Positions 294-44,377 of a DNA stretch of 64,000 bases are shown piece by piece. The notes beneath the pieces were generated by a model. The model saw only the letters and a program-made list of their open reading frames with translations, searched no databases and had not been told where the DNA came from. The stretch is from a candidate division WOR-3 bacterium (lineage in GTDB: Bacteria; Hydrothermota; Tepidihabitantia; B3-TA06). Location: contig CBFGKC010000001.1 in assembly GCA_965649265.1 (NCBI GenBank), forward strand, positions 77,119 through 141,118, given 5' to 3'. Within the stretch, counting starts at the first letter, position 1. Each line of letters opens with the position of its first letter. The position numbers and the translations under genes were made by a program.

Positions 294-396
294 TGACTCA
301 AGGAGGAGGGCGGGAGGAGGGCGGGGGGACCACGGAAAGTTACGAAGTAACTTCATGGCGTATCAACATGGTTCCCGGTAAAAACACAGAGCTTTT

Positions 397-3381
397 TTAC
401 CGGCTTACAATTACCATCGGCCTTGTAACCCCCGCGCGTATCTGCGTGCGGCCGGAAAGGCTCGCATGCCGGCCCTGGCACCCGGCGAGAAACTTCGCAT
501 AGTCATCGTTCATGTCGAAGCGTCCGAAGCCCTCGGTAAGGATGAGGGTGAAGGGTATTTGCTCGTCGCCAGTGAGCGCCACGCCCATCTCCTGTCCGTA
601 GAAGCGCACCCAGTCGGCGTTCTCGACGGACGGCGCTACGATGCCTGCAACCTCTATCTCCGCCGCCTTTCGGAGGAACTCCTCGTCAATGGGCTGAGCG
701 GTCACGACTATCTTTCCCTTGAGGCCGAAATCGATATCGGTGGATTTCGTCAAGACGGCGAGTTCGCCCCACGCCTCGCGACCGAACCCGAGGATGCCGT
801 AGAGTATTGTCCCTTCGCCTGAGATATGGGCGCTGAAGGCGGGCCTTATATGGGATACGGTGCCGCCTACGAAGGATTTCAAGGATACGGGCTTGATGTC
901 GTACTGTATGGTTACGGTTCCCTCTCTTGTGTCCATTTTTTTGAGCACGCCCGTTGACGGGGCTTTCACGAACGCAGCCTGTGAAAGATCCTGGGCTATC
1001 ACCTGATCCTTCTCCACGAAATCGCCCTCTCTTACCTTGAGATATCCGGAAACGTGCCTGGGCGCAATCCTGAGCGCCCTGGCGACTCCCACGACGTGCG
1101 GTTTCTCGTCGTAGTCCTGTATCTCCCGCATGATGATGAGCCCGCCCTTTTCGATGTGCGAGATTCGCGCGCGAAGGGGGGAGGAGATGAAATAGGGTAT
1201 CCCGAGCAGGTTGCCCTTCGTCGTCTTGAAGAGGTGGGTTCCCAGCTGCACCTGATCGCCGGCCTTCACGAGCATGCCTTCCTCGATTTCCTTTTCGTCG
1301 AGCGTGGTCTCATGGCCGAGGAAGCGGTAGATGTCTATTATGTAAAGCTTGGGTGGGCCGAAGCGGTTCTCACCTATGGCGGTATCGGGAGTTACGCTCT
1401 GGCCCTCGCGGACGAATATCTCGCCCTCGTAAGGAAGCCTGCGCTCGAAGGTGTAGGTGCCTGTGGCTATTTCGGATGCCCCCCTGCGCACATCCGTCTT
1501 AAAACCTTCCGCGGGGAAGAGATTCCAGATGCCGGATTTCGAAAGTGGGATATCGAGCATTCTTTCGCCCCTGCCCCTGCAGTCGAACAATACGGGCAGA
1601 GTCGTTTTTAGGGAGACTTGTTTGAGCCCGCCCGCCAGGCTCGCTTCCTTCGACAGGAGAATGGTGAGCTCGCCGTGATCGTTGAGATAGAGCGCTTGAC
1701 CTCCCTTGAGAGTGTGGCTCGTGCCTTTGTTGTCCTTGACGGTGAGAACCTCTCTTCTGGGGGATAAGTTGCCGAGGGGAGCGACAACGAACGCAAGATC
1801 CTCCAGGCATTGGCGGGAATAGAGGTCCAGCGCGAGCGCGGGGTCAAGGCGGGAGAGCGCGCCCATGTGGGGGCTCTTGAAGTTCTTATCGAGGGAAATT
1901 TTGGTGATGCCCGAGGGCTTGAAGCCTTCAACAAGAACCCAGAGCGCCTCTTCTTTTGATTTCGCATGCGACAGCACACCGCCCGCGCCTATTATCCTCT
2001 GGATATCCTTGGGCTGGAAGTAGGTGTCCTCCTGGATGAAGAAAAGCTCCTCGAACGCGTCCACGTCCTTGCGCAGCTTTCGCCTGTCGAGCCTGCCCAC
2101 GCGCGCTATCTTGAAGTTCATCTCCTTGTGCTGGTCCCACGCGATTGCGATGCCTTCCGCAGCCGCGGCTTGTTCGACTAATCTCTCGCAGTCGTGACGG
2201 GGGACGTAGGTCGGGTTAAGGGTCTTGTTGGCTATGTAGTCGCGCACCTCGTTCTCGGAGTATTCTTCAGGGAGGTGCCGGAGAATTTTGCCTATCCCGC
2301 TCTGGGCAAGGACGTTGGAAAGGGAGTAGCTGACGCCTATGTTAGCGGCCACCGTGCGGTGGTATGCCCCCATTATATTGGAGAAGATGTCGGTCGTCGC
2401 GCCGCCTATGTCGGCGGCGGCGATGTTCTCGCCGGTGCTCCGGCCGTAGAGACCAAGGATGCTTGCTACCCCGGCGGGCGTGGGAAGGATATCGGCCGCG
2501 ACCCAGCTCTTGAGCGCGGCATACCCGGGCGCGCGCTCCATTACGTTCTCCATGAACAGCTCGTGCACCTTGCGCTTTGCAGGCTCCGTGTTCATATCCT
2601 TCATGGAAGGCCTGATGTTGGCAACCGTGTGCACCTCGAAGTGCTCCTCGAGCACCCTCAGGACGAACCTCTGTGCGTCCACGTTACCGCAGAAAACGAG
2701 CGGTATGCGATCGGACGAGCGGAACTTCGGCTCTGGCTCTGCGAGCGACAAGAGCTCTGCCAGGTTTACGACGCCGGAGATTGCGCCGCCGTCTATACCG
2801 CCGGCCATGAGAACGAGGTCGGGGTGAAGCTCACGTATTAGCCGCATCTTTTCGACTACAGGTATGTGGTCGTCGATGGTCAGGGTCTTGAGAATGACTC
2901 CGCCCGCACCGTAGGCGGTCATCTGTGCCACGCGGCCCGTCTCGACCGCCGAAAGCCCGAACACCAGCATTCCCAGCCCGCCGCCCGCGGAGCTCGTCGT
3001 GATATAGGGGAAGGAGATACGACCGGCGCTATCGAGGAGTTTTATCCGGGACTTCTCCTCGAGCCCCTTCACGGCGTTGATGACTCCTATCTTCACGTCC
3101 TCGTATGGTTTCTCGACCGTTGTCGGCACCTCATGCTCGGCCGCGAGCGTGTAGGCGAGCATGGTTTCTGCCGGGGTCCCCACTGGAGCGCGAAGCGATC
3201 CTGCGGGGTGAACATCCGGGGTCCCCGAAGGAGTGCCCTGCAATCCTTTGGGGTGAATGTCCGGGGTCCCCGAAGGAACACGCGGCGATTCTTCAGGGTG
3301 TTTTTTTGAGAGGAGGAGAGCCTTGGTCGTCGTCGAGCCTATGTCGGTGATGATAATGTGATCGGCCTCGTTAATCTTCAT
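397..3381 (-). CDS. Glutamate mutase L (GlmL/MutL-like ASKHA reactivase) fused to a ~370-aa C-terminal accessory module; carries a 3x45-bp in-frame repeat insertion
   Basis: DIGSTTTKA, TSSAGGGL, LMAGGIDGG, DIGGATTDIFS motifs; C-terminal ERRLPYEGEIFVREGQSV...TQIRAGVTRP module; ATG 3381 has AAGGAG RBS (ORF track starts 3402). Confidence 0.75.
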   Translation of the reverse strand: MKINEADHIIITDIGSTTTKALLLSKKHPEESPRVPSGTPDIHPKGLQGTPSGTPDVHPAGSLRAPVGTPAETMLAYTLAAEHEVPTTVEKPYEDVKIGVINAVKGLEEKSRIKLLDSAGRISFPYITTSSAGGGLGMLVFGLSAVETGRVAQMTAYGAGGVILKTLTIDDHIPVVEKMRLIRELHPDLVLMAGGIDGGAISGVVNLAELLSLAEPEPKFRSSDRIPLVFCGNVDAQRFVLRVLEEHFEVHTVANIRPSMKDMNTEPAKRKVHELFMENVMERAPGYAALKSWVAADILPTPAGVASILGLYGRSTGENIAAADIGGATTDIFSNIMGAYHRTVAANIGVSYSLSNVLAQSGIGKILRHLPEEYSENEVRDYIANKTLNPTYVPRHDCERLVEQAAAAEGIAIAWDQHKEMNFKIARVGRLDRRKLRKDVDAFEELFFIQEDTYFQPKDIQRIIGAGGVLSHAKSKEEALWVLVEGFKPSGITKISLDKNFKSPHMGALSRLDPALALDLYSRQCLEDLAFVVAPLGNLSPRREVLTVKDNKGTSHTLKGGQALYLNDHGELTILLSKEASLAGGLKQVSLKTTLPVLFDCRGRGERMLDIPLSKSGIWNLFPAEGFKTDVRRGASEIATGTYTFERRLPYEGEIFVREGQSVTPDTAIGENRFGPPKLYIIDIYRFLGHETTLDEKEIEEGMLVKAGDQVQLGTHLFKTTKGNLLGIPYFISSPLRARISHIEKGGLIIMREIQDYDEKPHVVGVARALRIAPRHVSGYLKVREGDFVEKDQVIAQDLSQAAFVKAPSTGVLKKMDTREGTVTIQYDIKPVSLKSFVGGTVSHIRPAFSAHISGEGTILYGILGFGREAWGELAVLTKSTDIDFGLKGKIVVTAQPIDEEFLRKAAEIEVAGIVAPSVENADWVRFYGQEMGVALTGDEQIPFTLILTEGFGRFDMNDDYAKFLAGCQGRHASLSGRTQIRAGVTRPMVIVSR
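3171..3305 (+). repeat. Three tandem 45-bp GGGGTCCCC-N23-GGGGTG hairpin units inside the GlmL CDS
   Basis: Units start at 3171, 3216, 3261; translate as HP-x8-GTP peptides. Confidence 0.9.
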
Positions 3382-3743
3382 ACACCACTCCTTTGATTTC
3401 AAAAAAGACTTTCTTTTGCTGCTTGCGATAAAAACTGCTCACATGATACCTCTTAGCGTAAACTATAGGCTGGTGGAGGCGCTCGTCAAGGGGTTTTTCC
3501 CCAACTTACATATAGACGTAATTTCTGCCGTAATATTTCTTTATTTATTCTTTAATGTAAAATAAGGATTATTTTAGGCTTTCTTTATTAATCATAAAAA
3601 ACTGCACTTATGCGGAGATCCCCTTCCTTTGACTGCTGGGCCGGCGTACACTCTGGAAGATCGCCTGCTGATCGTGAGCGCTCGACCTCCTGGGAGCCCC
3701 CTCGCCCTTTGGGTAAGAGAAAGGTGAGGGTGTAATGGGGGAG

Positions 3744-3851
3744 GTGTGTTACTGAGGAGATGTGTTACGGGGGTGGTGTGTTACGGGGGGAGGGTGTGTT
3801 ACGGGAAGGAGGGTGTCACGGGTGTGTGTGTTACGGGTGTTATTTCCTTAG
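3744..3851 (+). repeat. Cluster of GTGTTACGGG short repeats (about 6 copies)
   Basis: Directly visible; reverse complement of the CCCGTAACAC array at 21261-21590, including the CTAAGGAAATAACAC end. Confidence 0.85.
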
Positions 3852-3958
3852 AACAAAGCTGCATATGAGAACCCCCCGGAGGGGGGCGGGTTTTACGGGG
3901 CGCTTGACACTTCGAAGAAAGCGGCTATGCTTGGCAGGATAACAGACTGGAGGTTCAC

Positions 3959-5578
3959 GTGAAGCGAGTGATTGTTACAAGCCTTTTCCTGTTCTTTTCG
4001 ATCTATGCAAAGTGGCAGAACCCAACGCCTATCTACGTAGGGCCGGGTGACCAGACGATAGATATGGTAATATCTGACGGCGCGGGCGGCGCTGCGGTGC
4101 TGTGGCATGACGGTCAGACCGGCTGGGAGTTCATGAACGTGATAGACTCTGCAGGCAACCTCAAGTGGGGTAAGCAGGGTGTGGCCGTGCTCGTGATGGG
4201 CGATACCACGACAGCTAACCCGGACATGTTCCTTGATTCCCTTGGCAGCTACTGGGTTGCGCTTGAGGCTGCAGCTGATATCCACGTACAGAAGATATCG
4301 CCAACGGGCCAGCGGCTATTCGGGGACAGAGGGGTGGCCGTTTGCACGGCGGAAGGAACTCAAACCTTTGCTAAGCTCTGTTATTCCGGAGAAGGGGCTA
4401 TTGTTGTATGGATGGATGAACGTGATGCATTGGACTATCGTAATTATTCACAACGTGTCAGTAGTGAAGGTATAACATTATGGGAAAACGATGGAATGCC
4501 GATTTCTGATTCTCCCTATGGATGGTTTGCTAACTGTGTTTCAGATGGAGTTAATGGGGCTTTTTATATCTTTAGACAATGGATTGATTCTCAAAATCAT
4601 ATTGCCCTCCAAAGATTAGATTCTCTCGGCTCAAGAATGTGGGGTGATTCTGGAATCTATTATGGGGTAGGAAAAATCTGGACGGAATCTGGCTTCCTTT
4701 GTGGTCATATGAATGAAGTTGAAGATAGTGGTTTTATTTTCTTTTATGAATCAGGCGGGTACTACAGAACTAACCGCGTTAATAGTTTCGGAATCATGCA
4801 ATGGGATACTTCAGAGGTTATTCTAGGAAATGATAACGACCACTACTTCGGCAACGTTTCACGACTTCCTTCCGGTGATTGGTATATAGTGAGGGGATCG
4901 GGAATAGCACTTCCTTTTGAAGGCGTTTATGCTCATATCGTGACACTTGATGGAGAAACCCCTTTAGACGATACAGGTAGAAGTGTTTGGAATAAATGGG
5001 CATATAATCCCCGCAGTTATATTATTCCAGACGTAACTGAAGAAGGCATTATCGCATGGAGGGATATCTATGACGAAGGAGAACCTTCTGGTGACAAGTA
5101 TATTGAACAGGGTATTATGGCTCAACGCATTGATAACTCAGGAAATATCCTTTGGCCTGAAGAAGTCCACGTTGCAGGTATTCAAGGACTTTCCCCTCAA
5201 GTTGTTGGAACTTTTGATAAGGCTGGAGTCATTGCCTGGAATGACAACCGTAACGGCAACCTTGACGTTTATACTACAAGGATAGATTCATCAGGTAAAT
5301 TGCCTCCTGGAATCGAAGAACAACCTGTTCTTCAATCTCCTGCGGAGCTTGAAACCCCATCAAACATTGCTTCTGGCAATGTCCTGCTTAGGTATTTCCT
5401 GAACCCAAGCGAGCGTGGCAGCCTCAAGCTCTTCGACGCGTCTGGCAGGATGGTTGAGAGCGTTTCAGTTCAAGGGCAAGGCGAGGTGAAGTTCGCGGCA
5501 TTTTCGGCAGGCGTCTACTTTGTTCGGCTCCAGGCGGGAGGTGGCGGGATCACGAAAAAGATCGTCGTGGTAAGATAA
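3959..5578 (+). CDS. Secreted beta-rich protein with T9SS type A-like C-terminal sorting domain
   Basis: Signal peptide; SDGxGGA/W-D-R repeats; GIEE linker and LFDASGRMV...AGVYFVRL...KKIVVVR CTD; promoter TTGACA-N16-TATGCT at 3904-3931. Confidence 0.8.
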   Translation: MKRVIVTSLFLFFSIYAKWQNPTPIYVGPGDQTIDMVISDGAGGAAVLWHDGQTGWEFMNVIDSAGNLKWGKQGVAVLVMGDTTTANPDMFLDSLGSYWVALEAAADIHVQKISPTGQRLFGDRGVAVCTAEGTQTFAKLCYSGEGAIVVWMDERDALDYRNYSQRVSSEGITLWENDGMPISDSPYGWFANCVSDGVNGAFYIFRQWIDSQNHIALQRLDSLGSRMWGDSGIYYGVGKIWTESGFLCGHMNEVEDSGFIFFYESGGYYRTNRVNSFGIMQWDTSEVILGNDNDHYFGNVSRLPSGDWYIVRGSGIALPFEGVYAHIVTLDGETPLDDTGRSVWNKWAYNPRSYIIPDVTEEGIIAWRDIYDEGEPSGDKYIEQGIMAQRIDNSGNILWPEEVHVAGIQGLSPQVVGTFDKAGVIAWNDNRNGNLDVYTTRIDSSGKLPPGIEEQPVLQSPAELETPSNIASGNVLLRYFLNPSERGSLKLFDASGRMVESVSVQGQGEVKFAAFSAGVYFVRLQAGGGGITKKIVVVR

Positions 5579-5583
5579 TCACC

Positions 5584-6472
5584 GTCATCTGCGAGCTAGC
5601 CGCTGGGGGCGGCATGGGCGGAAGCTTTGCTTCCGCAGTCAAGCGACTGTGGCGATCTCATGGCACAAAGCTCGAAACACATAGGATACTCCCTCAATAA
5701 ATGCGCTTGCCCCGGGGTCCCCAAGGAGGCGCAGAGCGACTTCTTGGGGTGGACACCCCCCTAACACTTACAACGTCATCCTGAGGGAGCGTAGCGCCCG
5801 TGAGGATCGCCTGGTTGATCCTGTATCTCATTACGAGAGGTCTCACCTTGCCCCCAACCCCTTCCCGTCAAGGGAAGGGGTTGCGTTCCCCTCACCCCAC
5901 CCTCTCCCGAAGGGAGAGGGTAAGCTAAGAAACCTCCCGCCCTCGGTGGGATGGATTGAGTTCGTAGGGGCCGACCTTCAGCGTGCCCCTTGGGATAAGC
6001 TTTATCCCATAGGGTATCAGGTCGGCCCGGGGCATTTCGACCGGCATCTTAAGGAGCATTTTCGTCAAGACGAAAATAGATGGCTCCCTGCGTTCGCCCT
6101 TTGGAGGCTTCGCACCGCCTGAAACGGCCACCTTCTCAAGTCGAGGGAATTAATCGAAGATCCCTGCGCCAAAGGTCTTCGAGGCCGTACACCTCACCTT
6201 CATAAGAGTGCCCCGTAACACACACCTTGTCATCTGCAAGCTAGCCGCCGGGGGCGGCATGGGCGGAAGCTTTGCTTCCGCAGTCAAGCGACTGTGGCGA
6301 TCTCCTGGCACAAAGTCAAAACTCACTGGATACATTTATAGATCAATGCGATTGCTTCGCCGGCTCTGCGCCGTCTCGCAATGACGTTGGTTTTTGTATA
6401 ATGAAAAGGGTTGTCTTTGCGAGTGTCGCTGTGAGCGACCGAAGCAATCTATTCCCGGAGGGAATGTACCTT
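5584..6472. repeat. Composite intergenic cluster of REP-like palindromes, including an 87-bp direct repeat (5584-5670 / 6229-6315)
   Basis: 87-bp copies with 3 mismatches; GGGGTCCCC-N23 unit 5714-5751; CCCTCTCCC..GGGAGAGGG hairpins 5857-5920; GTAGGGGCCGACC..GGTCGGCCC 5964-6028; GATTGCTTCG..CTCGCAATGAC 6350-6386. Confidence 0.8.
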
Positions 6473-6747
6473 ATAAGATCTTACCGGCAACTCAAAGCTC
6501 CCTCTTCTCGGGGCCCCCAAAGAACTGCTTCTAGCAGTCCTTTGGGGCAGAAAAAAAACCCCGAAAGGCCCAAAAATCGTCCGTTCAGGTTTTTGACTTC
6601 TAATTCACGGTCTTACTTAAGTTATATGCGATTTACCCCTCTTTTTGGCCGTTTTTTTGTCCCACTTTTTTTCCCGGTTTTTCACCCCGGTACAGCCGGA
6701 CTCCCCGGAAAATCAGTGTTCTAAGTTGTTTGTGGAAGGTAAGTTGC

Positions 6748-8283
6748 TTAAACCGCCTCGCGGAAGAAGCTGTCGAAAGCCTGCGGGCGGAGGTATTTTT
6801 TGAGTTTTTTAATGGAACGCTCTTTTATCTGTCGCGCCGCCTCGCGCGAGATGTTCAGCAAGTCGCCTATTTCTCGTAAGTTAAGCTCTTGCTGCGGAGG
6901 CGTAATGCCCCAGAAAAGCGCCATTATCTCGGTCTCGATGAGCTCGAACCCCTCGAACTGATCGGTCAGCATGGAGGCCATATTTTTTACAACCTTGCTC
7001 ATTACACGCAGCATAATTTTACGCGAGGCTTCATCCGTTTTTTTCAAAACCTCCGGCAAAGCCTGAAGCTGGACAGGGGTGAGTTTTGCGTAATGTCGTA
7101 AACCTTCGTCACCTATGCTGCGGCGCAGTCGTGAGATGAGTTTTCTTGATGCTGTGCAGAGCGTGTGCTGGATGTCCTCACTGCTTGAACCGAAGATATT
7201 TGAGATACGTTTCAAATTAAAGCGACCCTGCGGAAGCGGGATTCCAAAGTGCCGCGTAACCACGTACAGTTCCCTGTCGGCAAGCGCGTCGTAAAGCGAT
7301 GCACGCACGTCGCGCTCAATCTGCTCGCGACCAGAGAGCTCGGTGGGCAGGGGGGAGGTAGTGTCCTTGAGCACTTCTTCGAAGGTGACCTTGGAATCAT
7401 CGAACGGCAGGGCGTCTATTGAGAGTTCTGCGACTCCGCAGTCGAAAGCACACGAGACCTCCTCGGGCGATACCTCAAGCTCGCGTGCCAGCTCTTCTAT
7501 CGAGGGAGTCCTTCCGAATCTTTGGGCCAGGATGCCGTAACTGTCACGAATTTTTTTTGCAAGGTTACGCATCTTTATAGGAAGCTTTATGAGATGGCGA
7601 GAGGCAAGAGCAGTGACGATGTAGTAGCGTATCCACCAGTTCGAGTACGTGGTCAGTCGTGTCTTGCGGGCCTCGTCGAATTTTGAAACAGCCTGAATGA
7701 GACCGAGGTTGCCCTCGTTTATGAGTTCAGAGAGCGCGAGACCCCGGTTCTGGTACTGCTTGGCGATTGTGACGACCCAGCGGAGATTGTGAACAATTAG
7801 TTTGTCGCGAGCTTCGCGGTTATAATCCAGGAGACCCGCGTTGGCGGCGGGAGAGTCCGGCTCGACCTCGACCACGACAAGCCCTTGTTTGATGTTCCCT
7901 ATGGATTTCCTCTGTTCCGGGGCAATCTCCCCAAGCTCGATAAGTTTCATACCCAGGATGGAGACTGACCGATCGACCTTCTCTTTCATAGGGGGCATCA
8001 GGGCTGGAAGGACCAGCATCATCTCGACCTCTCTACCGGATCGAATGCATCCAAGGGAAACTTGTGAGCTTGCGCCCTCACGCTTGAGCTGCTTGATCAG
8101 GCTTGAACGGGAAGCCAGGGGCTTCCCGTTCAACGAGATTATCAAATCACCGAACTTGGCCTGCTTTGCGTACCCCTCCTCCTCTTCACGCGTGAGCAAC
8201 GGGTAGCGCATTATTTGCTTGAAATAGCGCCCCAGCGAGCGGTCGGATGCCCATCTAAGCATCGGTTCAACCCCTCCGTTCAA
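6748..8283 (-). CDS. RpoD/RpoS-like sigma70 factor with inserted PDZ-like domain and duplicated region 4
   Basis: Region 1.2 YFKQIMRYPLLTREEE; region 2 HNLRWVVTIAKQYQNRGL..ELINEGNLGLIQAVSKFD..TYSNWWIR; region 3 GRTPSIEELARELEVS; region 4 LNLREIGDLLNISREAARQI; start may be ATG 8262. Confidence 0.88.
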   Translation of the reverse strand: MNGGVEPMLRWASDRSLGRYFKQIMRYPLLTREEEEGYAKQAKFGDLIISLNGKPLASRSSLIKQLKREGASSQVSLGCIRSGREVEMMLVLPALMPPMKEKVDRSVSILGMKLIELGEIAPEQRKSIGNIKQGLVVVEVEPDSPAANAGLLDYNREARDKLIVHNLRWVVTIAKQYQNRGLALSELINEGNLGLIQAVSKFDEARKTRLTTYSNWWIRYYIVTALASRHLIKLPIKMRNLAKKIRDSYGILAQRFGRTPSIEELARELEVSPEEVSCAFDCGVAELSIDALPFDDSKVTFEEVLKDTTSPLPTELSGREQIERDVRASLYDALADRELYVVTRHFGIPLPQGRFNLKRISNIFGSSSEDIQHTLCTASRKLISRLRRSIGDEGLRHYAKLTPVQLQALPEVLKKTDEASRKIMLRVMSKVVKNMASMLTDQFEGFELIETEIMALFWGITPPQQELNLREIGDLLNISREAARQIKERSIKKLKKYLRPQAFDSFFREAV

Positions 8284-12494: not shown

Positions 12495-12578
12495 TGCCGA
12501 AGGAGGGAGTCGAACCCTCACGGAGCAAGCTCCAACGGATTTTGAGTCCGCCGCGTATGCCAATTCCACCACTTCGGC
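12495..12578 (-). tRNA. tRNA-Leu (anticodon CAA), CCA end not encoded
   Basis: GCCGAAG acceptor, GGAATTGGCATAC D-arm, GCGGA-CTCAAAA-TCCGT anticodon arm, long variable arm, GGTTCGACTCC T-arm. Confidence 0.95.
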
Positions 12579-12695: not shown

Positions 12696-13796
12696 TCAAT
12701 CGAGCAGTATGGGCATGAGCAGGTAGAAGCGGTTCTGTTCTTCTCTCGTACCTTTGCCGTGGATGAGTACTGCGGAGAGCGCCCCTGTTATATCGAAGAC
12801 GACCTCATCCGTCTCTATGTGGCGAAGGATATCGAGGAGGTAGGAACCGTTGTATGCTACCTCAAATGTCTCGCCCTTGTATCCGGCGGGCAGCTCCTCG
12901 TGAGCCTCCTCACCCTCCGGCGAAAATGAGGATAGCTCGAGATTCTTCTTTCCAAGCACGAACTTTATCTGCCTCGTTACCTGGTTCGTGAATATCATCA
13001 TCCTCCGGAGTGCGGCGTTCAGTTCATCCCGGTTAACGGTAAGCACGTTCTTTATCTCCTTCGGGATGACCTTCTCGTAATCGGGATAAGGACCCTCGAT
13101 AAGTCTCGAGACCACCTCGGTCGCACCGAAGGAAAGGCCGATCTTCGTCGAGTCTATAGACACGTCCACAGGGCCGTCAAGCTCCTTGGGAAAGAAGTTG
13201 AATATCTTGGTCGGCAATATCTGTGATCTATCTTCAATCTTCGGATAGTTCTCACGGTCTTCACTGACAGCCATGCGATGACCGTCGGTCGCAACCATGC
13301 GGTTCTTTTTTTCCTTAAGCTCCCAGAAGATACCGGTCATGGCAGGCCTGTCCTCGCCTTTCGAGACCGCAAACTCAACTGCTTCAAAGATGTGTCTCAG
13401 CTCTTCACCTTCAACAGAGAATTTCGTTTCCTTGGGAAGCTCAAACATCCTTGGAAACTCTTCGGCGTCGAGAATCGGCATCTTGAATACGCTTCTTCCT
13501 GCCTTGACTATGACGCGATTCTCTTCGCGCGTGAATTCGATGTCGTCGGCATTGCTTTCCCTGACAATGCTTAGAATCTTGCGGCCGGGAAGAAGGACCT
13601 TTGCTTCTTCCTTTGCTTTTATACCGGTCCAGGTCTTGACGTATATATCAAGATCGGTCGCGAGAAAGCTTAATCTATCTGCTTCGGTTGAACAGAGTAT
13701 GTTTTGAATTATCGGATAAGGCGTGCGAGAAGGAATGACTCCAACAACTCTGTTAATTAAATCTTCCAAGAGATTTTTCTCAAGTTTAAACCACAT
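12696..13796 (-). CDS. dnaN: DNA polymerase III beta subunit (sliding clamp)
   Basis: ATDLD, VATDGHRMA, SRLIEGPYPDY, YLLMPI; follows dnaA. Confidence 0.95.
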   Translation of the reverse strand: MWFKLEKNLLEDLINRVVGVIPSRTPYPIIQNILCSTEADRLSFLATDLDIYVKTWTGIKAKEEAKVLLPGRKILSIVRESNADDIEFTREENRVIVKAGRSVFKMPILDAEEFPRMFELPKETKFSVEGEELRHIFEAVEFAVSKGEDRPAMTGIFWELKEKKNRMVATDGHRMAVSEDRENYPKIEDRSQILPTKIFNFFPKELDGPVDVSIDSTKIGLSFGATEVVSRLIEGPYPDYEKVIPKEIKNVLTVNRDELNAALRRMMIFTNQVTRQIKFVLGKKNLELSSFSPEGEEAHEELPAGYKGETFEVAYNGSYLLDILRHIETDEVVFDITGALSAVLIHGKGTREEQNRFYLLMPILLD

Positions 13797-14026: not shown

Positions 14027-15349
14027 TTAACCCCTGTTTATCCTCTGTTCTATGCCTGTAAGCTGTTCCTTGAAATCGGCATCCTCCTCGGTAAGGCGCT
14101 TGACCTTTTCGATGGCGTGTATGACCGTCGTGTGATCCTTACCACCGAAGAAGCGTCCTATCTCTTTCAAGGGCAAACCGAGGAGCTTTCTCATCAGGAA
14201 CATCGCCGACTGTCTGGCAAGCGCAAGATTAGCGGCCCTCGAGCGCGAGAGCATCTCCTCAGTGCTTATGTTGAAGGTTCGGGCGACGTGTTTGGCGATT
14301 CTGTTTGGGGTGGTCTTCGGGCGGTTCCTTAAAAGTTCGTGAAGAACCTCCTCGGCAAGGGCGGTCGTCATGGAGCGACCGGTAAGGGAGGAGAGTGCCA
14401 GAAGACGTATGAGAGTGCCTTCGAGTTCCCTTACATTGGAGCGAACCCTTGAGGCTATGTAGTATGCAACATCCTGCGGAAGTCCCTGGCCCTCAGATTC
14501 GGCTTTAGAGCGAAGAATCGCAATGCGGGTCTCGAGGTCAGGAGGCTGGATGTCCACGACCAGCCCGCCTGAAAAACGGGAAGCAAGCCGCTCTTCCAGG
14601 GTGGGGATCTCCCTCGGCGGCCTGTCGGAGGTCAACACCACCTGCTTGCCGCCTTCGTAGAGATGATTAAACAGGTGGAAAATCTCTTCCTGGAGTGATT
14701 CCTTGCCGCGCAGGAAGTGTATGTCGTCGATGAGGAGAATATCCTTCGAACGGTAGCGATTCTTGAACTCCATGCGAGTATTCTTCTCGACGGCGTCAAT
14801 AAGTTCTATGAAAAGTGTTTCCGCCGGTATATAAGTAACCGATAGTTTTGGCTTTGTTCGAGCCAGGTAATTACCTATGGCCTGCAAGAGATGAGTTTTG
14901 CCGAGACCGACACCACCGTAAATGAACAGTGGATTGTAGACCTCGGACGGCGCTTCCGCCACTGCCAGTGCTGCTGCATGCGCAAAGCGGTTGTGCTCGC
15001 CGACGACGAAGTTGGTAAAGGCGTACCGCTCTTGCAGGTGCGAACCGTCCTGTGCGTAAACGATCCGACGACGCACAAATTTCGGCCTTGCCGCGCCGGG
15101 ATCAACCTTACGCGCCTGAAAGGCTACACGCAGTCCGCCCGAATTTACCTCGGTTAATGCTTCGGCAAGCGCCTTGCCGTAATATTCCTCGATCCATTCG
15201 ACGAAGAACGGATTAGGGACCTCAACGAGGATCGTATTATCGCGCACCTGGAGGAAACGCGTAGGTCTGAACCATGTGTTGAAACCTTCTTCAGTTATGC
15301 GGGGCTTGAGCCTTTCGAGTACCGCATCCCAAAGAGCAAGATCACTCAA
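14027..15349 (-). CDS. dnaA: Chromosomal replication initiator DnaA
   Basis: FNTWF, YNPLFIYGGVGLGKTHLL, LLIDDI, FGGKDHTTVIHA; likely TTG start at 15349 after GAGGAGG. Confidence 0.96.
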   Translation of the reverse strand: MSDLALWDAVLERLKPRITEEGFNTWFRPTRFLQVRDNTILVEVPNPFFVEWIEEYYGKALAEALTEVNSGGLRVAFQARKVDPGAARPKFVRRRIVYAQDGSHLQERYAFTNFVVGEHNRFAHAAALAVAEAPSEVYNPLFIYGGVGLGKTHLLQAIGNYLARTKPKLSVTYIPAETLFIELIDAVEKNTRMEFKNRYRSKDILLIDDIHFLRGKESLQEEIFHLFNHLYEGGKQVVLTSDRPPREIPTLEERLASRFSGGLVVDIQPPDLETRIAILRSKAESEGQGLPQDVAYYIASRVRSNVRELEGTLIRLLALSSLTGRSMTTALAEEVLHELLRNRPKTTPNRIAKHVARTFNISTEEMLSRSRAANLALARQSAMFLMRKLLGLPLKEIGRFFGGKDHTTVIHAIEKVKRLTEEDADFKEQLTGIEQRINRG

Positions 15350-15360
15350 GGCTCCTCCTC

Positions 15361-15381
15361 TTATCCACAAAGTTATCCACA
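15361..15381 (+). promoter_or_regulatory. Two perfect DnaA boxes upstream of dnaA
   Basis: TTATCCACA at 15361-15369 and 15373-15381; dnaA promoter TTGACA-N16-TATATT at 15460-15487 (minus). Confidence 0.9.
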
Positions 15382-15492
15382 CTCATACCAAACATAAATC
15401 ACCATTTGTTTAAGCTTAACCCTGTACTCCCGCTTAACGGGGTAATTGGGGATAGGTGAAATATACTCTTTCCTTGCCGATTGTCAAGTACT

Positions 15493-18093
15493 TTATTTCT
15501 CAACTCGCCCCAGACAGGCAAGTGCCGCAGCTATTTGAAGTTGCCCGGCGGCAAGTCCGCCGTCTGATGCCGGTATCGTCACCGGCGTGCGGAATTCGAA
15601 ACCCGCATTTCGTGACCCCTCCCTCAGGGACCAGAGCAGAAGCCGGTTTGCGAACACTCCTCCCGAGGCCGCAATCGTATTGCACCCTGTGACATCTCTG
15701 GCCGCGGCGGCCCAGCGTAAAAGCACATTTGCGAAACCCCCGTGAAACATGGCTGCAATCTCGGACTTGTTGACCCCTTTATCGAGATCGGCAATGATTG
15801 CCTCGAGGCAAGGTTTCGGATCAAGCACAAGGTCATCCGATAAATCAAAATCATAACCCTTTGACCGTTTAGCGGCGCTATCGGCAAGTGCCTCGAGAGC
15901 AATCGCCCCCTCCGCCTCGTATGTAATCTCGTCCACTATCCCTAAAAGCCCCGCAACCGTGTCGAAGAGTCTCCCGGCGCTCGACGCGCGAACAACGCCG
16001 AGTTCTGCATCAAGCTGGGCGCTTACTCGCTCACCCGTCTGGCCAAAAAGCTCGATCGCCTTCTCCCGGCCGAAGAAATCGGCTACAACACCCGCAGCCA
16101 TCCTCCGGGGCTTCCTGATCACACCCTCGCCACCCACAAGCGCAAGCGAGCGCATGCGGCCGAGTCTTGAGTAGTATGCACCCGAGTCGGTGACGTGGAG
16201 CAATTCACACCCCCAGATAGATGCCCCGACCTTTTGCTCCGCATTCTCCCGGGTGACCCTGTACTCTTCCTTGCCCTTAGTAGGGGTCCCCATAGAAACG
16301 CTTTGCGTTTTTATGGGGTAAATCCCATACCCGGTGCCGTCCAGTGAAAGCCCTATCACGGGTTCCTTTATCCCGTGTTCGAATATTACGGCCGCGATGT
16401 GCGCGTGGTGGTGCTGCACCGAAAGCAGGGGGATCCCCCTGGCCCTTGAATATCGTTCTGCCCAGCGCGAGGAGAGATAGTCGGGATGCATGTCCCTCAC
16501 GACGATCCTGGGCTCGACCCTGAACCATGCGAGATAGCGTTCGAGCGTTTGCTCGAAGAACTCGATCGTCTCGCGATTGGTGAGCTCCCCAATGTGCGGC
16601 GAGAGCCAGAGGTGCGATCCGTCCGAGATCGCGAAAGACCCCTTCATCTCCGCGCCGACCGCAAGCGCTCGTGGAAAGTCGAAACCCGTCTCGAAAGGTT
16701 CGGGCGCGTAGCCGCGCGCCCTGCGCACGAGATAAAACCTGTTACCCCGGGAAAACACTCCCTTACCCCGAGAGAGTACTTCGTATTCTCTCGGGGACCC
16801 CGGACCGCTCTCCTGCCGCGCCTTCGATACCGGTGTAACCTCCCTGTCGGTTCCATCCTCTGCTGAACTCTCCTTAAGAAAAAATACAATGGAATCGTCG
16901 ATGCGGTTCAGAATCCTGCGATTGTGAGCGAGCGCGAAGTCGAACACGCCGCCGAGTTTTTTGTAGAGCTCAACCTCATCGGCAATCAAGGGCTCGTCAC
17001 CGCGGTTGGCCGAGGTTGCAACTAAAACCCCAAGAAAATGATCCACATCTTCTCTGGGACCCCAATCACTTACCCCAAGGTAATTCTTCGTTTTCTCTTG
17101 GGGGCCCCGTTCGCTTGAGAGTTTCTCAATCGCCGCGAACAGGATGTGGTGAAGCGGGGTGTAGGCGAGCATGATTCCGACCCCCGGGTTGCGGGGCGCA
17201 ATCGCCTGCCTCAACTCTTCCGGGACCTCGTCCCTCCATCTCATTAAAACAATCGGTGCGGCCTGGCGGCTGAGCATCTCCTCCTCCTCGGGTTCCATCC
17301 TCGCTAACACCCTCGCACTCTCAATATCCCTTGCCATGAGAGCGAGCGCCTTTGTGGGCCGAGTCTTTCTACGCCTGAGTTCCTCGATTGCGGCGATATT
17401 TGAAGCGTCACACATCAGGTGGTAGCCGCCGAGTCCCTTCACGGCAAGTATCCTTCCGTCCAAGAGCCGACCCGCCGCCTCGCCGACCACGTCGCTTGTC
17501 GGCACCACCCTTCCTCTTGAATCGAGCAAAACAAGCTCGGGTCCGCAGCGCGGGCAGGCGTTCGGCTGGGCGTGAAATCGCCTGTTCCGGGGATCCCCAT
17601 ACTCCCTTAGGCAATCGGCACACATGTGGAACTCCCCCATCGTCGTCAGGGGCCTGTCGTAGGGAAGCTTGTCAATAATAGTGTATCTGGGGCCGCAGTC
17701 GGTGCAGTTCGTGAAAGCGTATCCCGCACGCCTGTCGCCTGCCTCCCCGATCTCCCTGGCACATTTCGCGCACGTCGCAATGTCCGCCGCTACCTCCAGC
17801 GCCTGAGATGCCTGGCCCTCCAGGCTCGTCCTTATTGTGAAATCCTTGAACCCCTGCTCCGCTATCTCCGCGACATCAATCCCTCTTATGCGCGCGGCTG
17901 GAGGGGGATTGGTCCTCAGTGCCTCGAGAAAACGTTCAATCCGCTCCCCCGGACCCTCGAGCACTATCTCCACGCCCCCGAGGTCGTTCAATACAAAACC
18001 GGCGAGGCCGCACTTCGCGGCCTCGCTGTAACAGAATGGTCTGAAGCCGACCCCCTGAACCGCTCCCGTTACTCTAACGCGGACGGCAGACAT
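15493..18093 (-). CDS. hypF: Carbamoyltransferase HypF with three in-frame palindromic-element insertions
   Basis: GAVQGVGFRPF acylphosphatase domain, two Zn-fingers (CAKC/CTDC, CADC/CPRC), KGLGGYHL, RRARGYAP, QHHHAH, DGGLAAGQ. Confidence 0.93.
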   Translation of the reverse strand: MSAVRVRVTGAVQGVGFRPFCYSEAAKCGLAGFVLNDLGGVEIVLEGPGERIERFLEALRTNPPPAARIRGIDVAEIAEQGFKDFTIRTSLEGQASQALEVAADIATCAKCAREIGEAGDRRAGYAFTNCTDCGPRYTIIDKLPYDRPLTTMGEFHMCADCLREYGDPRNRRFHAQPNACPRCGPELVLLDSRGRVVPTSDVVGEAAGRLLDGRILAVKGLGGYHLMCDASNIAAIEELRRRKTRPTKALALMARDIESARVLARMEPEEEEMLSRQAAPIVLMRWRDEVPEELRQAIAPRNPGVGIMLAYTPLHHILFAAIEKLSSERGPQEKTKNYLGVSDWGPREDVDHFLGVLVATSANRGDEPLIADEVELYKKLGGVFDFALAHNRRILNRIDDSIVFFLKESSAEDGTDREVTPVSKARQESGPGSPREYEVLSRGKGVFSRGNRFYLVRRARGYAPEPFETGFDFPRALAVGAEMKGSFAISDGSHLWLSPHIGELTNRETIEFFEQTLERYLAWFRVEPRIVVRDMHPDYLSSRWAERYSRARGIPLLSVQHHHAHIAAVIFEHGIKEPVIGLSLDGTGYGIYPIKTQSVSMGTPTKGKEEYRVTRENAEQKVGASIWGCELLHVTDSGAYYSRLGRMRSLALVGGEGVIRKPRRMAAGVVADFFGREKAIELFGQTGERVSAQLDAELGVVRASSAGRLFDTVAGLLGIVDEITYEAEGAIALEALADSAAKRSKGYDFDLSDDLVLDPKPCLEAIIADLDKGVNKSEIAAMFHGGFANVLLRWAAAARDVTGCNTIAASGGVFANRLLLWSLREGSRNAGFEFRTPVTIPASDGGLAAGQLQIAAALACLGRVEK

Positions 18094-21781: not shown

Positions 21782-21857
21782 TTCTTTCCTCCAAGAAATT
21801 ACTCTTTATCACCATATTGGGGTCCCCGCAAAGATGCGGAGCAGGTTTGTGGGGTAG

Positions 21858-21886
21858 AAAAAAAGGAGGCGGCCCAGGGCCGCCTC
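21858..21886 (-). terminator. Rho-independent terminator
   Basis: GAGGCGGCCC-TG-GGCCGCCTC stem followed by a T-run on minus strand. Confidence 0.8.
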
Positions 21887-21906
21887 AACAATCCGGGGAG
21901 TCGAGA

Positions 21907-33244: not shown

Positions 33245-35812
33245 TTACTTGACGACCAGCACCTTGCCTGTCACTGCGAGCGTTCCCTGAACGAGTCTGG
33301 CGAAGTAGACGCCTGAAGGCAGGAAGCCTGGGTCCCAGGTTCCCGAACCACTCACTACCAGACGCTCGACGCGCCTGCCGTCCACCGAGAAGATATCGAG
33401 AAGAGCCTCGCCGCCCATCGCGACGCAGTAGGATACCCGGTTCAAAGAAGTCGAGAGCGTTATCGGGGATGGGGTTTTTGAAGTCTCATCGACTCCCGGC
33501 ACCTCAAGATCGACCACCTTGGCGTAGATGTCCCAGCCCTTGTGCCGACGGTTGTCCTGCCACACGTATACTATCCTGTCCCCGCCCGCGGCCACCGAGT
33601 TGTAGTTCGCGGCCTGGTAGTTGAAGCAGAAGAGGTCCGGATCGTTCACCTGAACCTTGCGGCTCCAGGGCGTACCGTCCGGGTGGTAATACACCGCCGA
33701 AACGTCAGGGTTGTCCGTGGAGTTGGAGTAATCCGTCCCATAGACCAAGAAGCCCCCCTGGGGCAAAGCAGCCACGCTTATATCATTGTGGCCGCCCAGA
33801 AGGATACCCGTATTTTTGTTTTCTCCGAGTTTCTCTCCATGAGCATCGTAGAACTGAACAAGACCATAAGCCGAGTCCGCCCACGCAACGCAGATGGTTC
33901 CCTCGTCGTCTACGGCAATGGCAGGTTTCTGTGCAACGCCACTAGGAGCCTCGTTAATCCGAACCGTATCACCCAGGGGCTTGCCTGACGAGTTGAAGCG
34001 CTGCATCATGATCCCGAACTTCTCCTTCCACGCCGTGACGAAGCTGTTGTCGTCCTTAAGAAAGATTGCATGCGGAATGTAACCAAAACCAGAGACGACC
34101 GGAACGCCGAACAACACAGGCGTCGCGTCAATTGCAAGATTATCCTTGTCGAAGCGCCTGGCCTTGAGCGTGTTAGAGCCTTGTACCGTATCGTTCCATA
34201 TCACGGCGAACGCGCCCTTGCGGTTCACGGAGACGTCGCAGCAAGTATTAAAGAAATTTCCCGCACAGCTGACCAGTTTTTCGTTCCCTGAAGGATAACC
34301 ATATTTCGTGTAGCGCTGAACACATATCTGCTGAGGGTCGGAGGCGCGCTTAAAAACCAGGACGAAATCCCCGCTCTTGCGGTTCATGCTCGCGCGAGCA
34401 TAGTATTGGGGCACCAATCTCGAAACACCGGAGGTGTCCTTCAAAGGCAAGGCGTCGCCCAGCGAGTCGCCGTCGGCGGAAAACCTGCGGCAGTAGGCCG
34501 GGGCATGGTACCAGTCCTCACTCCAAAGCGCGGTAAAGTTGCCTTCATCGTCGGCTAGAACCTGCGAGTATACTTCGTTGACGGAACTCTCGTCGTCTGA
34601 TATCTTAATCTCATTACCCAGCATCGAGCCGTAAACCATTCCGCGGCGGCCGAGCATCTCGTAAAAACCGTTCCTCTGTCTTGAATAAACGGCCATCCAC
34701 TGGTCGGCATTGAGCGCAAGCGCCTTGAGCATGCAGCCCTCCTCCCAGTCCTCGCTCAATGTCAACTCGGGGCCCCTCGGCGAGCCGTCGGCAAGGAAAT
34801 TCTGCAGATAGGTCACCAGCTTGCCTGTACGCTCGTCGCTCCAGGCAACGGTGAAGCTTCCGTCCCAGCCGACAACCATCTGGTGAGGGGAGATGCTCGT
34901 GAGATTTGAGTACAACTTGTAAATGATCTTCACATCACCGCTTGCCGTGCCGTCCCAGGAATAGGTTCTGTAATAGAGAGCATAGGGAACGAGCTGAGAG
35001 GCTATATCCCGGACTACCCATGAAAGCACAAACATACCCGCATGGTCGCATCCAACCGCTAAAGAATTCACGAAGGGTGGGAAAAGTTCGTTTGAGAATT
35101 CGGCAACCTGAAACACCCCACCGCGAGGGTCGCCGTTGGGTTTGTAACAGCAAGCTTTTATTCTCGTTGTCTGGTCCGATCCTGAACCGTTGCGGTACCA
35201 TGTGACGATAACGGCGCCGTTGGATGCTATCGCGACGCACGGCTTAATGTTGGGATCATCGACCGTCGCGACTTCCGCGACCTGATACTTCACCTTGCCG
35301 TTCGCGTCGAATACTATTAACCCTATAACCGGCTGCGGATCGCGCCAGGTTATCGCAAACTCGCCCGAGGGATTCATGGCCAGATTCGCTTCGGAGGTTC
35401 GACCGATAGCAAACAGCAAGGTGTCTTTCATGAGCAGTTCGCCTGAGGGTGATACCTTGCGCAGCCAGAACTCGCCCGAATCGCCTGCCGCGCGCCAAAG
35501 AACCACTGTATTCCCCGCACTGTCCGAGGCGGCGCAAACCAGGACCTGGCTTTTGCGAGTCGAATCGGAAGTTATCATGCGGTTGCCGCCTGAGGGAACG
35601 AGCGAAGTCGAAAGAAACTGACCGTAGAGATCCTCCTCGCTCTCGCGTGCGTTGCGTGTGTCCTCCCACACGACAAACCAGCCATGCGGCAAAGCTGCGA
35701 CCGTCGCAATGTCCTTGGTGCATTTGTTGGGAGAACCGGGGTTCACGAGGAAATCATCCTTTACAACCCCGCCGGTCAAAAGAATCGCCAGCGCCAAACC
35801 CAAAATACTCAT
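33245..35812 (-). CDS. Secreted beta-propeller protein with T9SS-A-like CTD (paralog A)
   Basis: Signal peptide, G-x-F-V-V-x-W repeats, SGVYFARL CTD; collinear with 35992-38559. Confidence 0.82.
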   Translation of the reverse strand: MSILGLALAILLTGGVVKDDFLVNPGSPNKCTKDIATVAALPHGWFVVWEDTRNARESEEDLYGQFLSTSLVPSGGNRMITSDSTRKSQVLVCAASDSAGNTVVLWRAAGDSGEFWLRKVSPSGELLMKDTLLFAIGRTSEANLAMNPSGEFAITWRDPQPVIGLIVFDANGKVKYQVAEVATVDDPNIKPCVAIASNGAVIVTWYRNGSGSDQTTRIKACCYKPNGDPRGGVFQVAEFSNELFPPFVNSLAVGCDHAGMFVLSWVVRDIASQLVPYALYYRTYSWDGTASGDVKIIYKLYSNLTSISPHQMVVGWDGSFTVAWSDERTGKLVTYLQNFLADGSPRGPELTLSEDWEEGCMLKALALNADQWMAVYSRQRNGFYEMLGRRGMVYGSMLGNEIKISDDESSVNEVYSQVLADDEGNFTALWSEDWYHAPAYCRRFSADGDSLGDALPLKDTSGVSRLVPQYYARASMNRKSGDFVLVFKRASDPQQICVQRYTKYGYPSGNEKLVSCAGNFFNTCCDVSVNRKGAFAVIWNDTVQGSNTLKARRFDKDNLAIDATPVLFGVPVVSGFGYIPHAIFLKDDNSFVTAWKEKFGIMMQRFNSSGKPLGDTVRINEAPSGVAQKPAIAVDDEGTICVAWADSAYGLVQFYDAHGEKLGENKNTGILLGGHNDISVAALPQGGFLVYGTDYSNSTDNPDVSAVYYHPDGTPWSRKVQVNDPDLFCFNYQAANYNSVAAGGDRIVYVWQDNRRHKGWDIYAKVVDLEVPGVDETSKTPSPITLSTSLNRVSYCVAMGGEALLDIFSVDGRRVERLVVSGSGTWDPGFLPSGVYFARLVQGTLAVTGKVLVVK

Positions 35813-35991
35813 TTTCTCCTCCTTCCCCGTCCAGGGGGAAGCACTTAACCTCTCAGTAATCTATCCAAGCCCTCGACGACACGAGCCAGGGGCTGTTTAT
35901 AGTTCCAGAACCACCATCGCCCGCCCTATCTCACGAGCACAACCTTTTGCCACCCCAGGAGAGTACCCGGTACTCTCCCGGGGACCCCTTT

Positions 35992-40038: not shown

Positions 40039-41421
40039 ATGAGGTTTTTGGTGCTTTTAGTTCTGGCAGGGATGACCGCCGCGGCCGCGGAAGAGGCGGT
40101 GGTCGATTGGCAAAGGACCTATGATTCAGGTAAAAAAGACGATGTGGCGGACGTTGCCGTTGACGGCTGGGGCAACATTTACGTCGCGGGCACAACCAGC
40201 GATGACGGCATAAACTCCGATTTCCTCATCCTCAAGTACGACAAATACGGCGGGCTGGCCTGGGACACGACCTACGACTCGGGCAATGAGGATTACGCCT
40301 ACGGAGTCGCCACCGATCCCGAGGGTAACGTGTTTGTCTCAGGGTACTCGCTCGTCGACACCGACCAGGATTTTCGTCTCGTAAAGCTCGACTCCACGGG
40401 CAGGCTGCTCTGGACCCGAAACTACAACCTCGGTTATGACAGGGCGGCAAAGGTCGCGGTGGACGGCGCCGGAGCGCCCTGCATTGCCGGGTACTCGACC
40501 GTCGGTTCCGACGGGCGTTTCCTTACGGTCAAGTTTACTAAGGACGGCAGCTTTCTCTGGTACAAGGACTACGGGGCAAATGCCGACGATCATGCGATGA
40601 GCGTCTGCTCCGATGGCCCTAACAATTTTCTGGTCGCGGGTTATTCTCGCAAGGGAGCGTCTACCTTCGACATGCGCGTAATAAAGTACGACGCATCGGG
40701 CAACGAGAAGCTTAATAAGACTTACGACATGGGAATATCCGAGTTCGCAACGGGCGTCGCGGCGGACTCGGCCGGCAACATATATCTTACCGGTTACGTC
40801 CCCGGCAGTGATTTTCTGACGGTAAAACTCAGCCCGGTGGGCAGCGAGAGCTGGGCAACGGTCTACAATCCAGGCAACGAGGCCAGGGACATTGCCCTTG
40901 ACCGGCAGGGTAACGTGTACGTCGTGGGTGAGTACAAATCGGGGGCCGACTACGATTTCACAACGATTAAGTATTCGAACGGGGGAATATTCCAGTGGGA
41001 AATCAGCGCAGGCGTCTACGCCCCGCGAGGGCTTTCGGGGGTCGCACTCGATTCGGACGGCGGCGTTTTTGCAGCGGGACCTTCTTTCAACGGCAGCAAT
41101 GTCGATTTCACGCTAATCAAGTACAGTCAAATCTCGGGTGTCGCAGAGCCGGACCCCTCTGCCGCGCTCCCTTCGCTTGTGCTCATCTCGACCCACGGTT
41201 CCTCGGCAACTCTCGCTTACACGCTCGCTCGCGATGAACGCGCCACTCTCTCCTTCTACTCCTGCGCCGGCGCCCTGGTCACGTCCCCCGTCCCCCTCTC
41301 AGCCTGCCAGGGTACCTACACCTGGGACGCAAGCCGCCTATCCCGGGGGGTCTACTTCGCAAGGCTCGACTCGCCTCAAGGCTCTCGAACGGTAAAGGTC
41401 GTAATCCTGACCAACTCATAA
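40039..41421 (+). CDS. SBBP-repeat beta-propeller protein with T9SS-A-like CTD
   Basis: Repeated VAVDxxGNIYVAG...DFLxxKY units; RGVYFARL CTD. Confidence 0.85.
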   Translation: MRFLVLLVLAGMTAAAAEEAVVDWQRTYDSGKKDDVADVAVDGWGNIYVAGTTSDDGINSDFLILKYDKYGGLAWDTTYDSGNEDYAYGVATDPEGNVFVSGYSLVDTDQDFRLVKLDSTGRLLWTRNYNLGYDRAAKVAVDGAGAPCIAGYSTVGSDGRFLTVKFTKDGSFLWYKDYGANADDHAMSVCSDGPNNFLVAGYSRKGASTFDMRVIKYDASGNEKLNKTYDMGISEFATGVAADSAGNIYLTGYVPGSDFLTVKLSPVGSESWATVYNPGNEARDIALDRQGNVYVVGEYKSGADYDFTTIKYSNGGIFQWEISAGVYAPRGLSGVALDSDGGVFAAGPSFNGSNVDFTLIKYSQISGVAEPDPSAALPSLVLISTHGSSATLAYTLARDERATLSFYSCAGALVTSPVPLSACQGTYTWDASRLSRGVYFARLDSPQGSRTVKVVILTNS

Positions 41422-41644
41422 AAACAAGAGGTGTTTTTTTGGCGACCCCTTTTTGCCCCTCCCCCGACTAAAGGGGTCCTTAAAAAAGTCGGTGCGGCTT
41501 TTTTTGGGGGGGGGGTAAAGATGCAGGAAAAAAAACCAACATCAAGTCAGGCTTCCGGTTTACATCTTCCTCCCCTCTTGACAAATGTTCACAACTGCAT
41601 ATCATAAAAAAGGTTAAATCGAAAAGAATGGAAGGAGGTTTCCA

Positions 41645-44360: not shown

Positions 44361-44377
44361 CGTCCCGACAACTTGTA

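Follow-up and report, generated by a model that had tools for sequence, protein, structure and literature searches.

Palindromic repeats located inside protein-coding genes have already been described in several phyla. Rickettsia palindromic elements (RPEs) are about 150 bp long (100-150 bp), fall into ten families each with its own conserved peptide, and occur in frame in Rickettsia genes, where they are thought to be compatible with the protein fold (PMC10969869); they end in CGTC (PMC3733652). Intragenic repetitive extragenic palindromic sequences (REPs), tagged by GTAG or CGTC, are presented by Di Nocera et al. (2013) as 20-40 bp stem-loops lying mostly downstream of open reading frames (ORFs) and often abutting stop codons, which their ends may also supply; some lie wholly within ORFs, singly or in clusters encoding 20-82 amino acids (aa), one gene site is reused in related species, and the elements are described in several phyla (PMC3733652). 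Coxiella QMITE2 measures 150-190 bp, with a preference for 3' untranslated regions (UTRs), variable direct repeats of 7-11 nucleotides (nt) and occasional in-frame insertion (PMC5896051). Here we analysed a 64,000-nt stretch of contig CBFGKC010000001.1 from a candidate division WOR-3 bacterium (hereafter the window), in which a short hairpin-forming repeat occupies three sites in hypF and one in a glutamate mutase L-like gene. We consider it likely that this repeat is a lineage-specific REP/RPE-like palindromic family, whose genic copies were selected to be in frame, stop-free and placed in tolerant loops, and would then be translated as Pro/Gly-bounded loops.

The element has the motif YACCCC-N23-GGGGACCCCG, in which CCCC...GGGG closes a 14-bp stem and the N23 interior consists of two complementary arms of 10 nt, the first purine-rich and the second pyrimidine-rich, on either side of a 3-nt loop. 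Its core (CCCC...GGGG) covers 31 nt, or 38-40 nt with the end tags (5' YA, 3' ACCCCG), and its arrays have a period of 45 nt. Like RPEs, it is a dispersed palindromic family found in frame inside unrelated conserved genes; it differs from RPEs by a unit of 38-45 nt, by arms and hence peptides that vary, and by its occurrence in another phylum. The 13 units aligned below end in YAC... and ...ACCCCG, without the CGTC reported for RPEs and CGTC-tagged REPs, and GTAG was found in only one of them (the 21824 copy), the others having GTAA, GTGA, GTGG or another sequence on the strand where GT.. follows the stem; the element fits neither tag superfamily. With REPs it shares the form of a short imperfect palindrome, the large number of copies, their predominant location downstream of ORFs and the reuse of the same gene site in relatives, and it differs from them by a stem of 14 bp instead of 5-13 bp and by head-to-tail groups instead of predominant head-to-head dimers (PMC3733652). 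It also departs from REP doublets forming hairpins (REPINs) in having no inverted unit pairs, all adjacent units being head to tail (3168-3306, 17028-17113 and 63605-63727). No REP-associated tyrosine transposase (RAYT, i.e. IS200/IS605-type Y1 transposase) was detected among the 36 ORFs scanned in the 64 kb. [quoted passage not shown] Preference for 3' UTRs, flanking repeats (7-9 nt) and in-frame insertion recall QMITE2, whereas here the element consists of the two terminal inverted repeats alone and direct repeats were found at two units only. Cyanobacterial small dispersed repeats, attributed to Elhai et al. in 2008, are reportedly tiny, hairpin-forming and mobile, and located in genes and inside each other; they would be alike as tiny hairpin repeats that can sit in genes, in another host and with another sequence. 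Our literature search returned no report tying WOR-3 to palindromic repeats, the papers containing both words being, by title, virus, defence, epigenome or metagenome surveys.

The hypF gene (ORF 15493..18093, minus strand) is complete and encodes 866 aa. Pfam identified the full set of domains, i.e. acylphosphatase, two HypF zinc fingers (two Zn-finger pairs), YrdC-like and both Kae1-like subdomains, and the protein keeps every column that is invariant across a 94-sequence HypF alignment. Its HMMER alignment to the solved HypF structure 3vth_A (761 aa) breaks at three points: query residues 323-356 face chain positions 322-324 (insert A, 31 additional residues), residues 406-453 face 374-378 (insert B, 43 additional residues) and residues 591-623 face 513-514 (insert C, 31 additional residues). 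Subtracting these 105 residues from 866 gives 761, exactly the length of 3vth. The initial annotation had placed three in-frame insertions carrying N23 units at 16225-17115, in an ORF that remained open with its motifs intact; all of this was confirmed, with refined boundaries (Table 1), and the inserts lie where orthologs have short loops. Inside them lie four full units plus a half unit, which occur in either orientation and in three reading frames (the initial annotation had already noted both orientations and different frames), and a covariance model (CM, see below) recovered exactly four units. The unit of insert C is sense to hypF, and those of inserts B and A are antisense in two different frames, the latter reading Gly-Pro...Leu-Gly-Val. 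The half unit, a direct repeat of the 5' half of the next unit, was not significant by CM (2.1 bits); it matches the copy at 46768-46800 over 14 of 14 positions (E 0.003) and 15 of 16 positions.

Relatives were drawn from a set of 5.8 billion proteins. The closest HypF proteins, where named, belong to candidate division WOR-3 or TA06; full-length identities range from 55 to 83%. We measured loop lengths as residues between fixed anchors in the above alignment, which comprises 73 outgroup HypFs and 21 clade members. Site C has 7 residues in 73/73 outgroup sequences and in 12/21 clade members, the other nine having 12-53 (window, 38). At site B, 65/73 outgroup loops measure 11-13 residues and all 21 clade loops 21-55 (window, 55). 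Site A has 12 or 18 residues in 59/73 outgroup sequences and 31-39 in three, 13-24 in 19/21 clade members, 43 in the window and 57 in its nearest relative. Orthologs with the same loops, the finding that would have spoken against an element-derived origin, were thus not seen at sites C and B. The three distant HypFs with long site A loops (P0120, P0067 and P0065) lie outside the clade, and this loop is therefore permissive in other lineages too.

A HypF tree was computed after removal of the insert columns (quick IQ-TREE run, with Shimodaira-Hasegawa-like approximate likelihood ratio test, SH-aLRT, as sole support). Among the 21 clade members, site A is filled in the window and its sister only. 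At site C, three near-identical proteins carry a single 15-aa unit and P0018, nested among them, a 5-aa remnant. Within a tight 11-member clade, site B shows two unlike alleles, one of sense and one of antisense pattern, whose patchy distribution is out of step with the tree and suggests recombination or repeated hits. At the same sites, relatives thus have inserts that are present, absent, different in unit number or in the other orientation. The nearest relative, P0002, has three units at site A vs two in the window; the cores of the two proteins are 85% identical with 0 gapped positions, and their inserts 70% identical with 29 gapped positions, all in A and C. Peptide patterns, judged by eye alone, suggest that the inserts of the relatives derive from the same hairpin element. 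A genome scan with the protein as query gave no related locus, and one with patterns from the clade alignment, both of which are universal in HypF, returned only distant HypF loci (at most 41% identity). A fourth variable HypF site (alignment columns ~915-945) was observed in P0003, P0005 and P0008-P0024, with short tandem repeats of Val-Leu-Arg type or Arg-Gly type; it is absent in the window and does not match the hairpin pattern.

Assemblers can be misled by repeats, and the inserts might accordingly be assembly or binning artefacts. The chance of this is close to negligible: a relative assembled on its own (83-85% identity, 85% in the core) has inserts at the same three sites, the frames remain open, and many database proteins, of several sources, show related insertions.

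In the window and in all relatives, every insert keeps the frame, i.e. its length is a multiple of three and it contains no stop. This bears on whether the units are translated at all, since they could instead be spliced out or bypassed by the ribosome, as are the hop elements of phage T4 gene 60 and of yeast mitochondria. Short G/C-clamped hairpins in ORFs, with matching CCC codons on both flanks, would suit such a process, and the Magnusiomyces mitochondrial bypass elements ascribed to Lang et al. in 2014 are likewise said to be short G/C-rich hairpins in ORFs, which break the frame and are skipped. Bypass and intron-like elements interrupt the frame; here, by contrast, it is kept throughout, which removal from the RNA would not require, hopping from CCC to CCC across the hairpin would leave out 31 nt and thereby change the frame, and no Rfam family was found on any unit. 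We therefore regard removal or bypass as extremely unlikely, and the open inserts of length divisible by three support read-through. Two other candidates were rejected, namely an intein (the inserts are far too short and have no Hint domain) and a CRISPR-like array (the variable parts of the units are palindromes in their own right, and most units are solitary).

An AlphaFold2 model of the window HypF was built on the 94-sequence alignment (mean predicted local distance difference test score, pLDDT, 87.7; predicted template modelling score, pTM, 0.89), and it superposes on 3vth and 4g9i with a target-normalised TM score of 0.90. Values of pLDDT below 50 were obtained only at residues 339-342, 344-347, 412-449 and 592-622, all within the three inserts. 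With secondary structure taken from this model and domain ranges from Pfam, all three inserts occupy loop, turn or linker positions, the initial annotation having expected surface loops. According to the model, they are probably disordered, floppy loops that leave the conserved core untouched.

The same element was found in a glutamate mutase L-like gene (397..3381, minus strand; Pfam MutL PF13941), as three units at exact 45-nt spacing (3178, 3223 and 3268) that read Tyr/His-Pro...Gly-Thr-Pro. The array adds 45 aa after the first strand, just past the conserved N-terminal DIGSTTTK motif. This insert is absent from 17 of the 18 orthologs compared (those 17 being at most 62% identical), and the nearest relative (81% identity) has an insert of 33 aa vs 45 aa in the window. 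When the 47-aa array peptide was used as query, the sole protein recovered from 86 candidates was that of the window itself. Directly behind the stop of this gene, at 320-403 (minus strand), two weak element-like matches (14 and 12 bits) were observed.

The repeat family largely exceeds chance. With a pattern restricted to the tags (interior free, one mismatch tolerated), 12 matches were obtained vs 1.22 expected, and 0/100 shuffles reached 12. At least 7 of the 10 inner pairs were formed in 10/12 of these matches; as the search had left the interior free, the hairpin was not selected for. CCCC-N23-GGGG occurs 13 times in the window vs 1.9 in 100 simple shuffles, with at least 8 inner pairs in nine of the 13 and in none from the shuffles. 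The 9-nt centre GGGGACCCC occurs 12 times vs 0.79 expected, always inside elements. Covariation was assessed on an alignment of 13 units (11 of the 13 CCCC-N23-GGGG matches plus two degenerate units picked by eye): 89% of the 182 cells are paired, both-side changes occur at 9 of the 14 pairs, and the covariation score was reached by 0/500 shuffles. In slid controls (partner moved by 1-3 columns), pairing was only 33-54%. The arms thus differ from copy to copy yet stay complementary, coding-region copies included, with both-side changes even between units of one array. Single units fold as RNA at -18 to -27 kcal/mol (z -3.0 to -5.4 for six single units), and the site A units are decayed (z -1.2). 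The number of units without a stop is 10-14 of 16 in any of the six frames. Possible ways of maintaining the arms are the copying of intact hairpins only, templated repair between arms, or selection as RNA or DNA.

Nearly every copy has its own arm sequence, some copies form head-to-tail arrays, and the neighbouring copies at 3178-6547 are the most alike. If the palindromes arose on the spot, through slippage or template switching at G/C-rich motifs and with no shared moving element, these features would be accounted for. Such an origin is nevertheless very unlikely in view of the fixed 10+3+10 geometry, the asymmetric conserved end tags, the conserved pair closing the loop and the purine/pyrimidine arm pattern found at more than 15 loci; moreover, the hypF half unit nearly equals a copy located 30 kb away.

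A CM built from the 13-unit alignment was searched against the window with filters off. It gave 15 matches of at least 33 bits in the 64 kb, i.e. the 13 seeds and two new copies (6505-6555 and 42982-43030); weaker matches were also obtained at 320-403, 41407-41454 and 61036-61067. Run with default filters, unlike the window search, on the surroundings (1,196,822 nt) of 80 distant HypF genes of other phyla, the CM gave one match (19.4 bits). There are nine clear intergenic copies: the core of six is found 4-15 nt past a stop codon, and seven follow the orientation of the upstream gene. The inserts and the main copies are listed in Table 1.

Table 1. Inserts, units and further copies of the hairpin element, in window coordinates
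Feature	Position	Strand	Remarks
Insert A of hypF	17026-17127	-	Residues 323-356; helix-to-strand loop of the YrdC-like domain (model secondary structure)
Insert B of hypF	16735-16878	-	Residues 406-453; linker joining the YrdC-like and Kae1-like domains
Insert C of hypF	16225-16323	-	Residues 591-623; turn between two strands right after DGTGYG, Kae1-like domain
Unit in insert C	16278-16326	-	Sense to hypF; Tyr-Pro-x8-Gly-Thr-Pro; CM 52.4 bits; RNA fold -20.8 kcal/mol, z -4.6
Unit in insert B	16758-16806	+	Antisense; Gly-Ser-Pro...Arg-Gly; CM 55.6 bits; inverted repeat; fold -24.5 kcal/mol
Unit A1 in insert A	17028-17063	+	Antisense, degenerate; CM 34.9 bits
Unit A2 in insert A	17065-17113	+	Antisense; CM 46.7 bits; inner pairs 6 Watson-Crick + 1 G-T of 10
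Half unit (5' tag + 5' arm)	16742-16759	+	Directly before the insert B unit
Three-unit head-to-tail array	3168-3306	-	Inside the glutamate mutase L-like gene
Intergenic copy	5709-5757	-	CM 49.6 bits
Intergenic copy, 5-nt loop	6505-6555	-	CM 38.9 bits; non-seed
Intergenic copy	21814-21862	-	Directly after a terminator-like hairpin with T run
Intergenic copy	35945-35993	+	8 nt from a stop codon, in the gap separating two tandem paralogs
Intergenic copy	42982-43030	+	4 nt behind a stop codon; CM 38.1 bits; non-seed
Weak copy	43881-43931	+	15 nt behind a stop codon; CM 20.4 bits, E 0.003
Intergenic copy	46762-46810	+	8 nt past the stop of a TonB-dependent receptor gene
Intergenic copy	60982-61030	+	4 nt past a stop; flanked by 7-nt direct repeat
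Intergenic copy	63605-63653	+	5 nt past a stop
Longer 70-nt variant	63658-63727	+	Same end tags, ~50-nt non-palindromic interior; flanked by 9-nt direct repeat; CM 16.7 bits (63666-63727)

On this basis, we propose that the element behaves like selfish DNA of REP/RPE type or minimal MITE type, which is probably mobile and would spread by transposition. Copies would settle mostly just behind stop codons and occasionally land inside a gene, where they would survive only if their length is a multiple of three, the frame used is stop-free and the site is a tolerant loop; this would have happened at three sites of hypF and at one site of the glutamate mutase L-like gene. The ribosome would then read straight through the units. 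In most frames the G/C clamps encode Pro and Gly, and the product would therefore be a nearly neutral, disordered Pro/Gly-bounded loop in an otherwise intact enzyme. Later on, arrays would gain or lose 15-codon units, hairpins would be deleted, and copies would decay into the unrecognisable remainder of the inserts. The two flanking repeats and the 70-nt variant sharing the tags, which possibly represents the element in a less reduced state, hint thinly at a MITE-like origin. The initial annotation had spoken of an independent RPE-like source of new loops: the dispersed palindrome, the in-frame position, the lineage restriction, the variable unit number and the predicted disorder agree with an RPE-like source, and its independence is argued from differing size and end tags only.

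Several points weigh against this proposal. The matched units account for 183 nt out of the 345 nt that the three insert intervals span, and about half of the inserted sequence cannot be recognised as derived from the element, so that the earlier statement that the inserts are built from the element stood for units at all three sites and not for the rest; apart from the half unit, the remainders gave no CM match and no significant blastn-short match in the window, and could represent either degraded copies or plain loop sequence. In the covariation alignment, rows were partly chosen by eye, the two matches left out having 3 and 4 pairs and no tags. Of the 15 non-array units, only two have flanking direct repeats (7 nt and 9 nt); tandem arrangement explains two more cases. 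No transposase was detected in the 64 kb (Pfam on 36 ORFs). The close relatives were compared at the protein level only. Finally, insert B is identical at 43/48 positions (90%) between the window and P0002, above the 85% of the core, and a constrained, possibly useful segment fits this better than neutral junk.

The latter point also favours another explanation, in which hairpins are kept for a nucleic-acid function, i.e. as 3' stabilisers or terminators and, within genes, as pause or regulatory structures, or in which the loops themselves are useful, the genic copies being adaptive. We judge it unlikely. The arms are complementary even in coding sequence, with both-side changes within one array, the hairpins of sites B and C are stable in the mRNA strand, and intergenic copies tend to lie just past stop codons in the orientation of the upstream gene; this position and the conservation of insert B keep a functional reading alive. 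Conversely, the site A units are decayed, inserts are gained and lost among close relatives, both orientations of the element coexist within a single gene, and the hairpins are not followed by a U tract. Complementarity could also be maintained by arm repair or by the copying of intact hairpins only.

It is also possible, though rather improbable, that the element is built for genes: a 15-codon, codon-phased module with Pro/Gly hinges in most frames, which would return to the same loop hot spots in either orientation and whose arms would be kept complementary in coding DNA by a structure-reading enzyme or by selection at the RNA level. Such a module, if real, would be a standing generator of hypervariable surface loops across the WOR-3/TA06-like clade.

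The conversion of selfish palindromic repeats into protein loops is known from Rickettsia, some REP-rich proteobacteria and Opitutus, and a lineage-specific REP/RPE-like family in hypF would extend it to an uncultivated lineage of FCB type. The case is a clear one, with three filled sites in one enzyme, reuse of sites across the clade, visible gain and loss of units, hairpin deletion and covarying arms. Inserts of this kind lead, in metagenome annotation, to inflated protein lengths and broken alignments, and the peptide signature Tyr/His-Pro ... Gly-Thr-Pro could be used to flag them.

Other features of the window were also recorded. Two of its ORFs carry sorting domains of the type IX secretion system (T9SS), which fits an organism of the FCB group and is the sole ground for that placement. 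The genes dnaA (14027-15382) and dnaN (12696-13796) directly adjoin hypF, with a tRNA at 12495-12578, and the presence of dnaA and dnaN implies that the window may be near the replication origin. No further hyp or hydrogenase gene was seen among the window ORFs scanned. In the product of a sigma-70 factor gene (6748-8283, minus strand), a PDZ-like stretch separates regions 1.2 and 2, and regions 3 and 4 are ~135 residues apart, a spacing far above the usual; the gene is free of element units, a 23-nt palindrome at 8107-8129 (E 3.6) being all that was found.

At 60975-61030, the left copy of the 7-nt direct repeat spans the stop codon of an NtrC-like gene, and this repeat looks like a target-site duplication. 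A G/C-rich hairpin followed by a T run was observed at 21855-21906 (minus strand), between the stop of the upstream gene and an element copy; the copy hence sits behind a terminator and does not act as one. Two tandem paralogs (33245-35812 and 35992-38559, minus strand) of 855 aa each, 56% identical and without Pfam family, are separated by a 180-nt gap that holds an element copy. Finally, a cobalamin riboswitch (RF00174, 50.1 bits) was identified at 44369-44605 (plus strand), before the TonB-dependent receptor gene; as it overlaps the listed start at 44470, the real start of the receptor is probably located further downstream.

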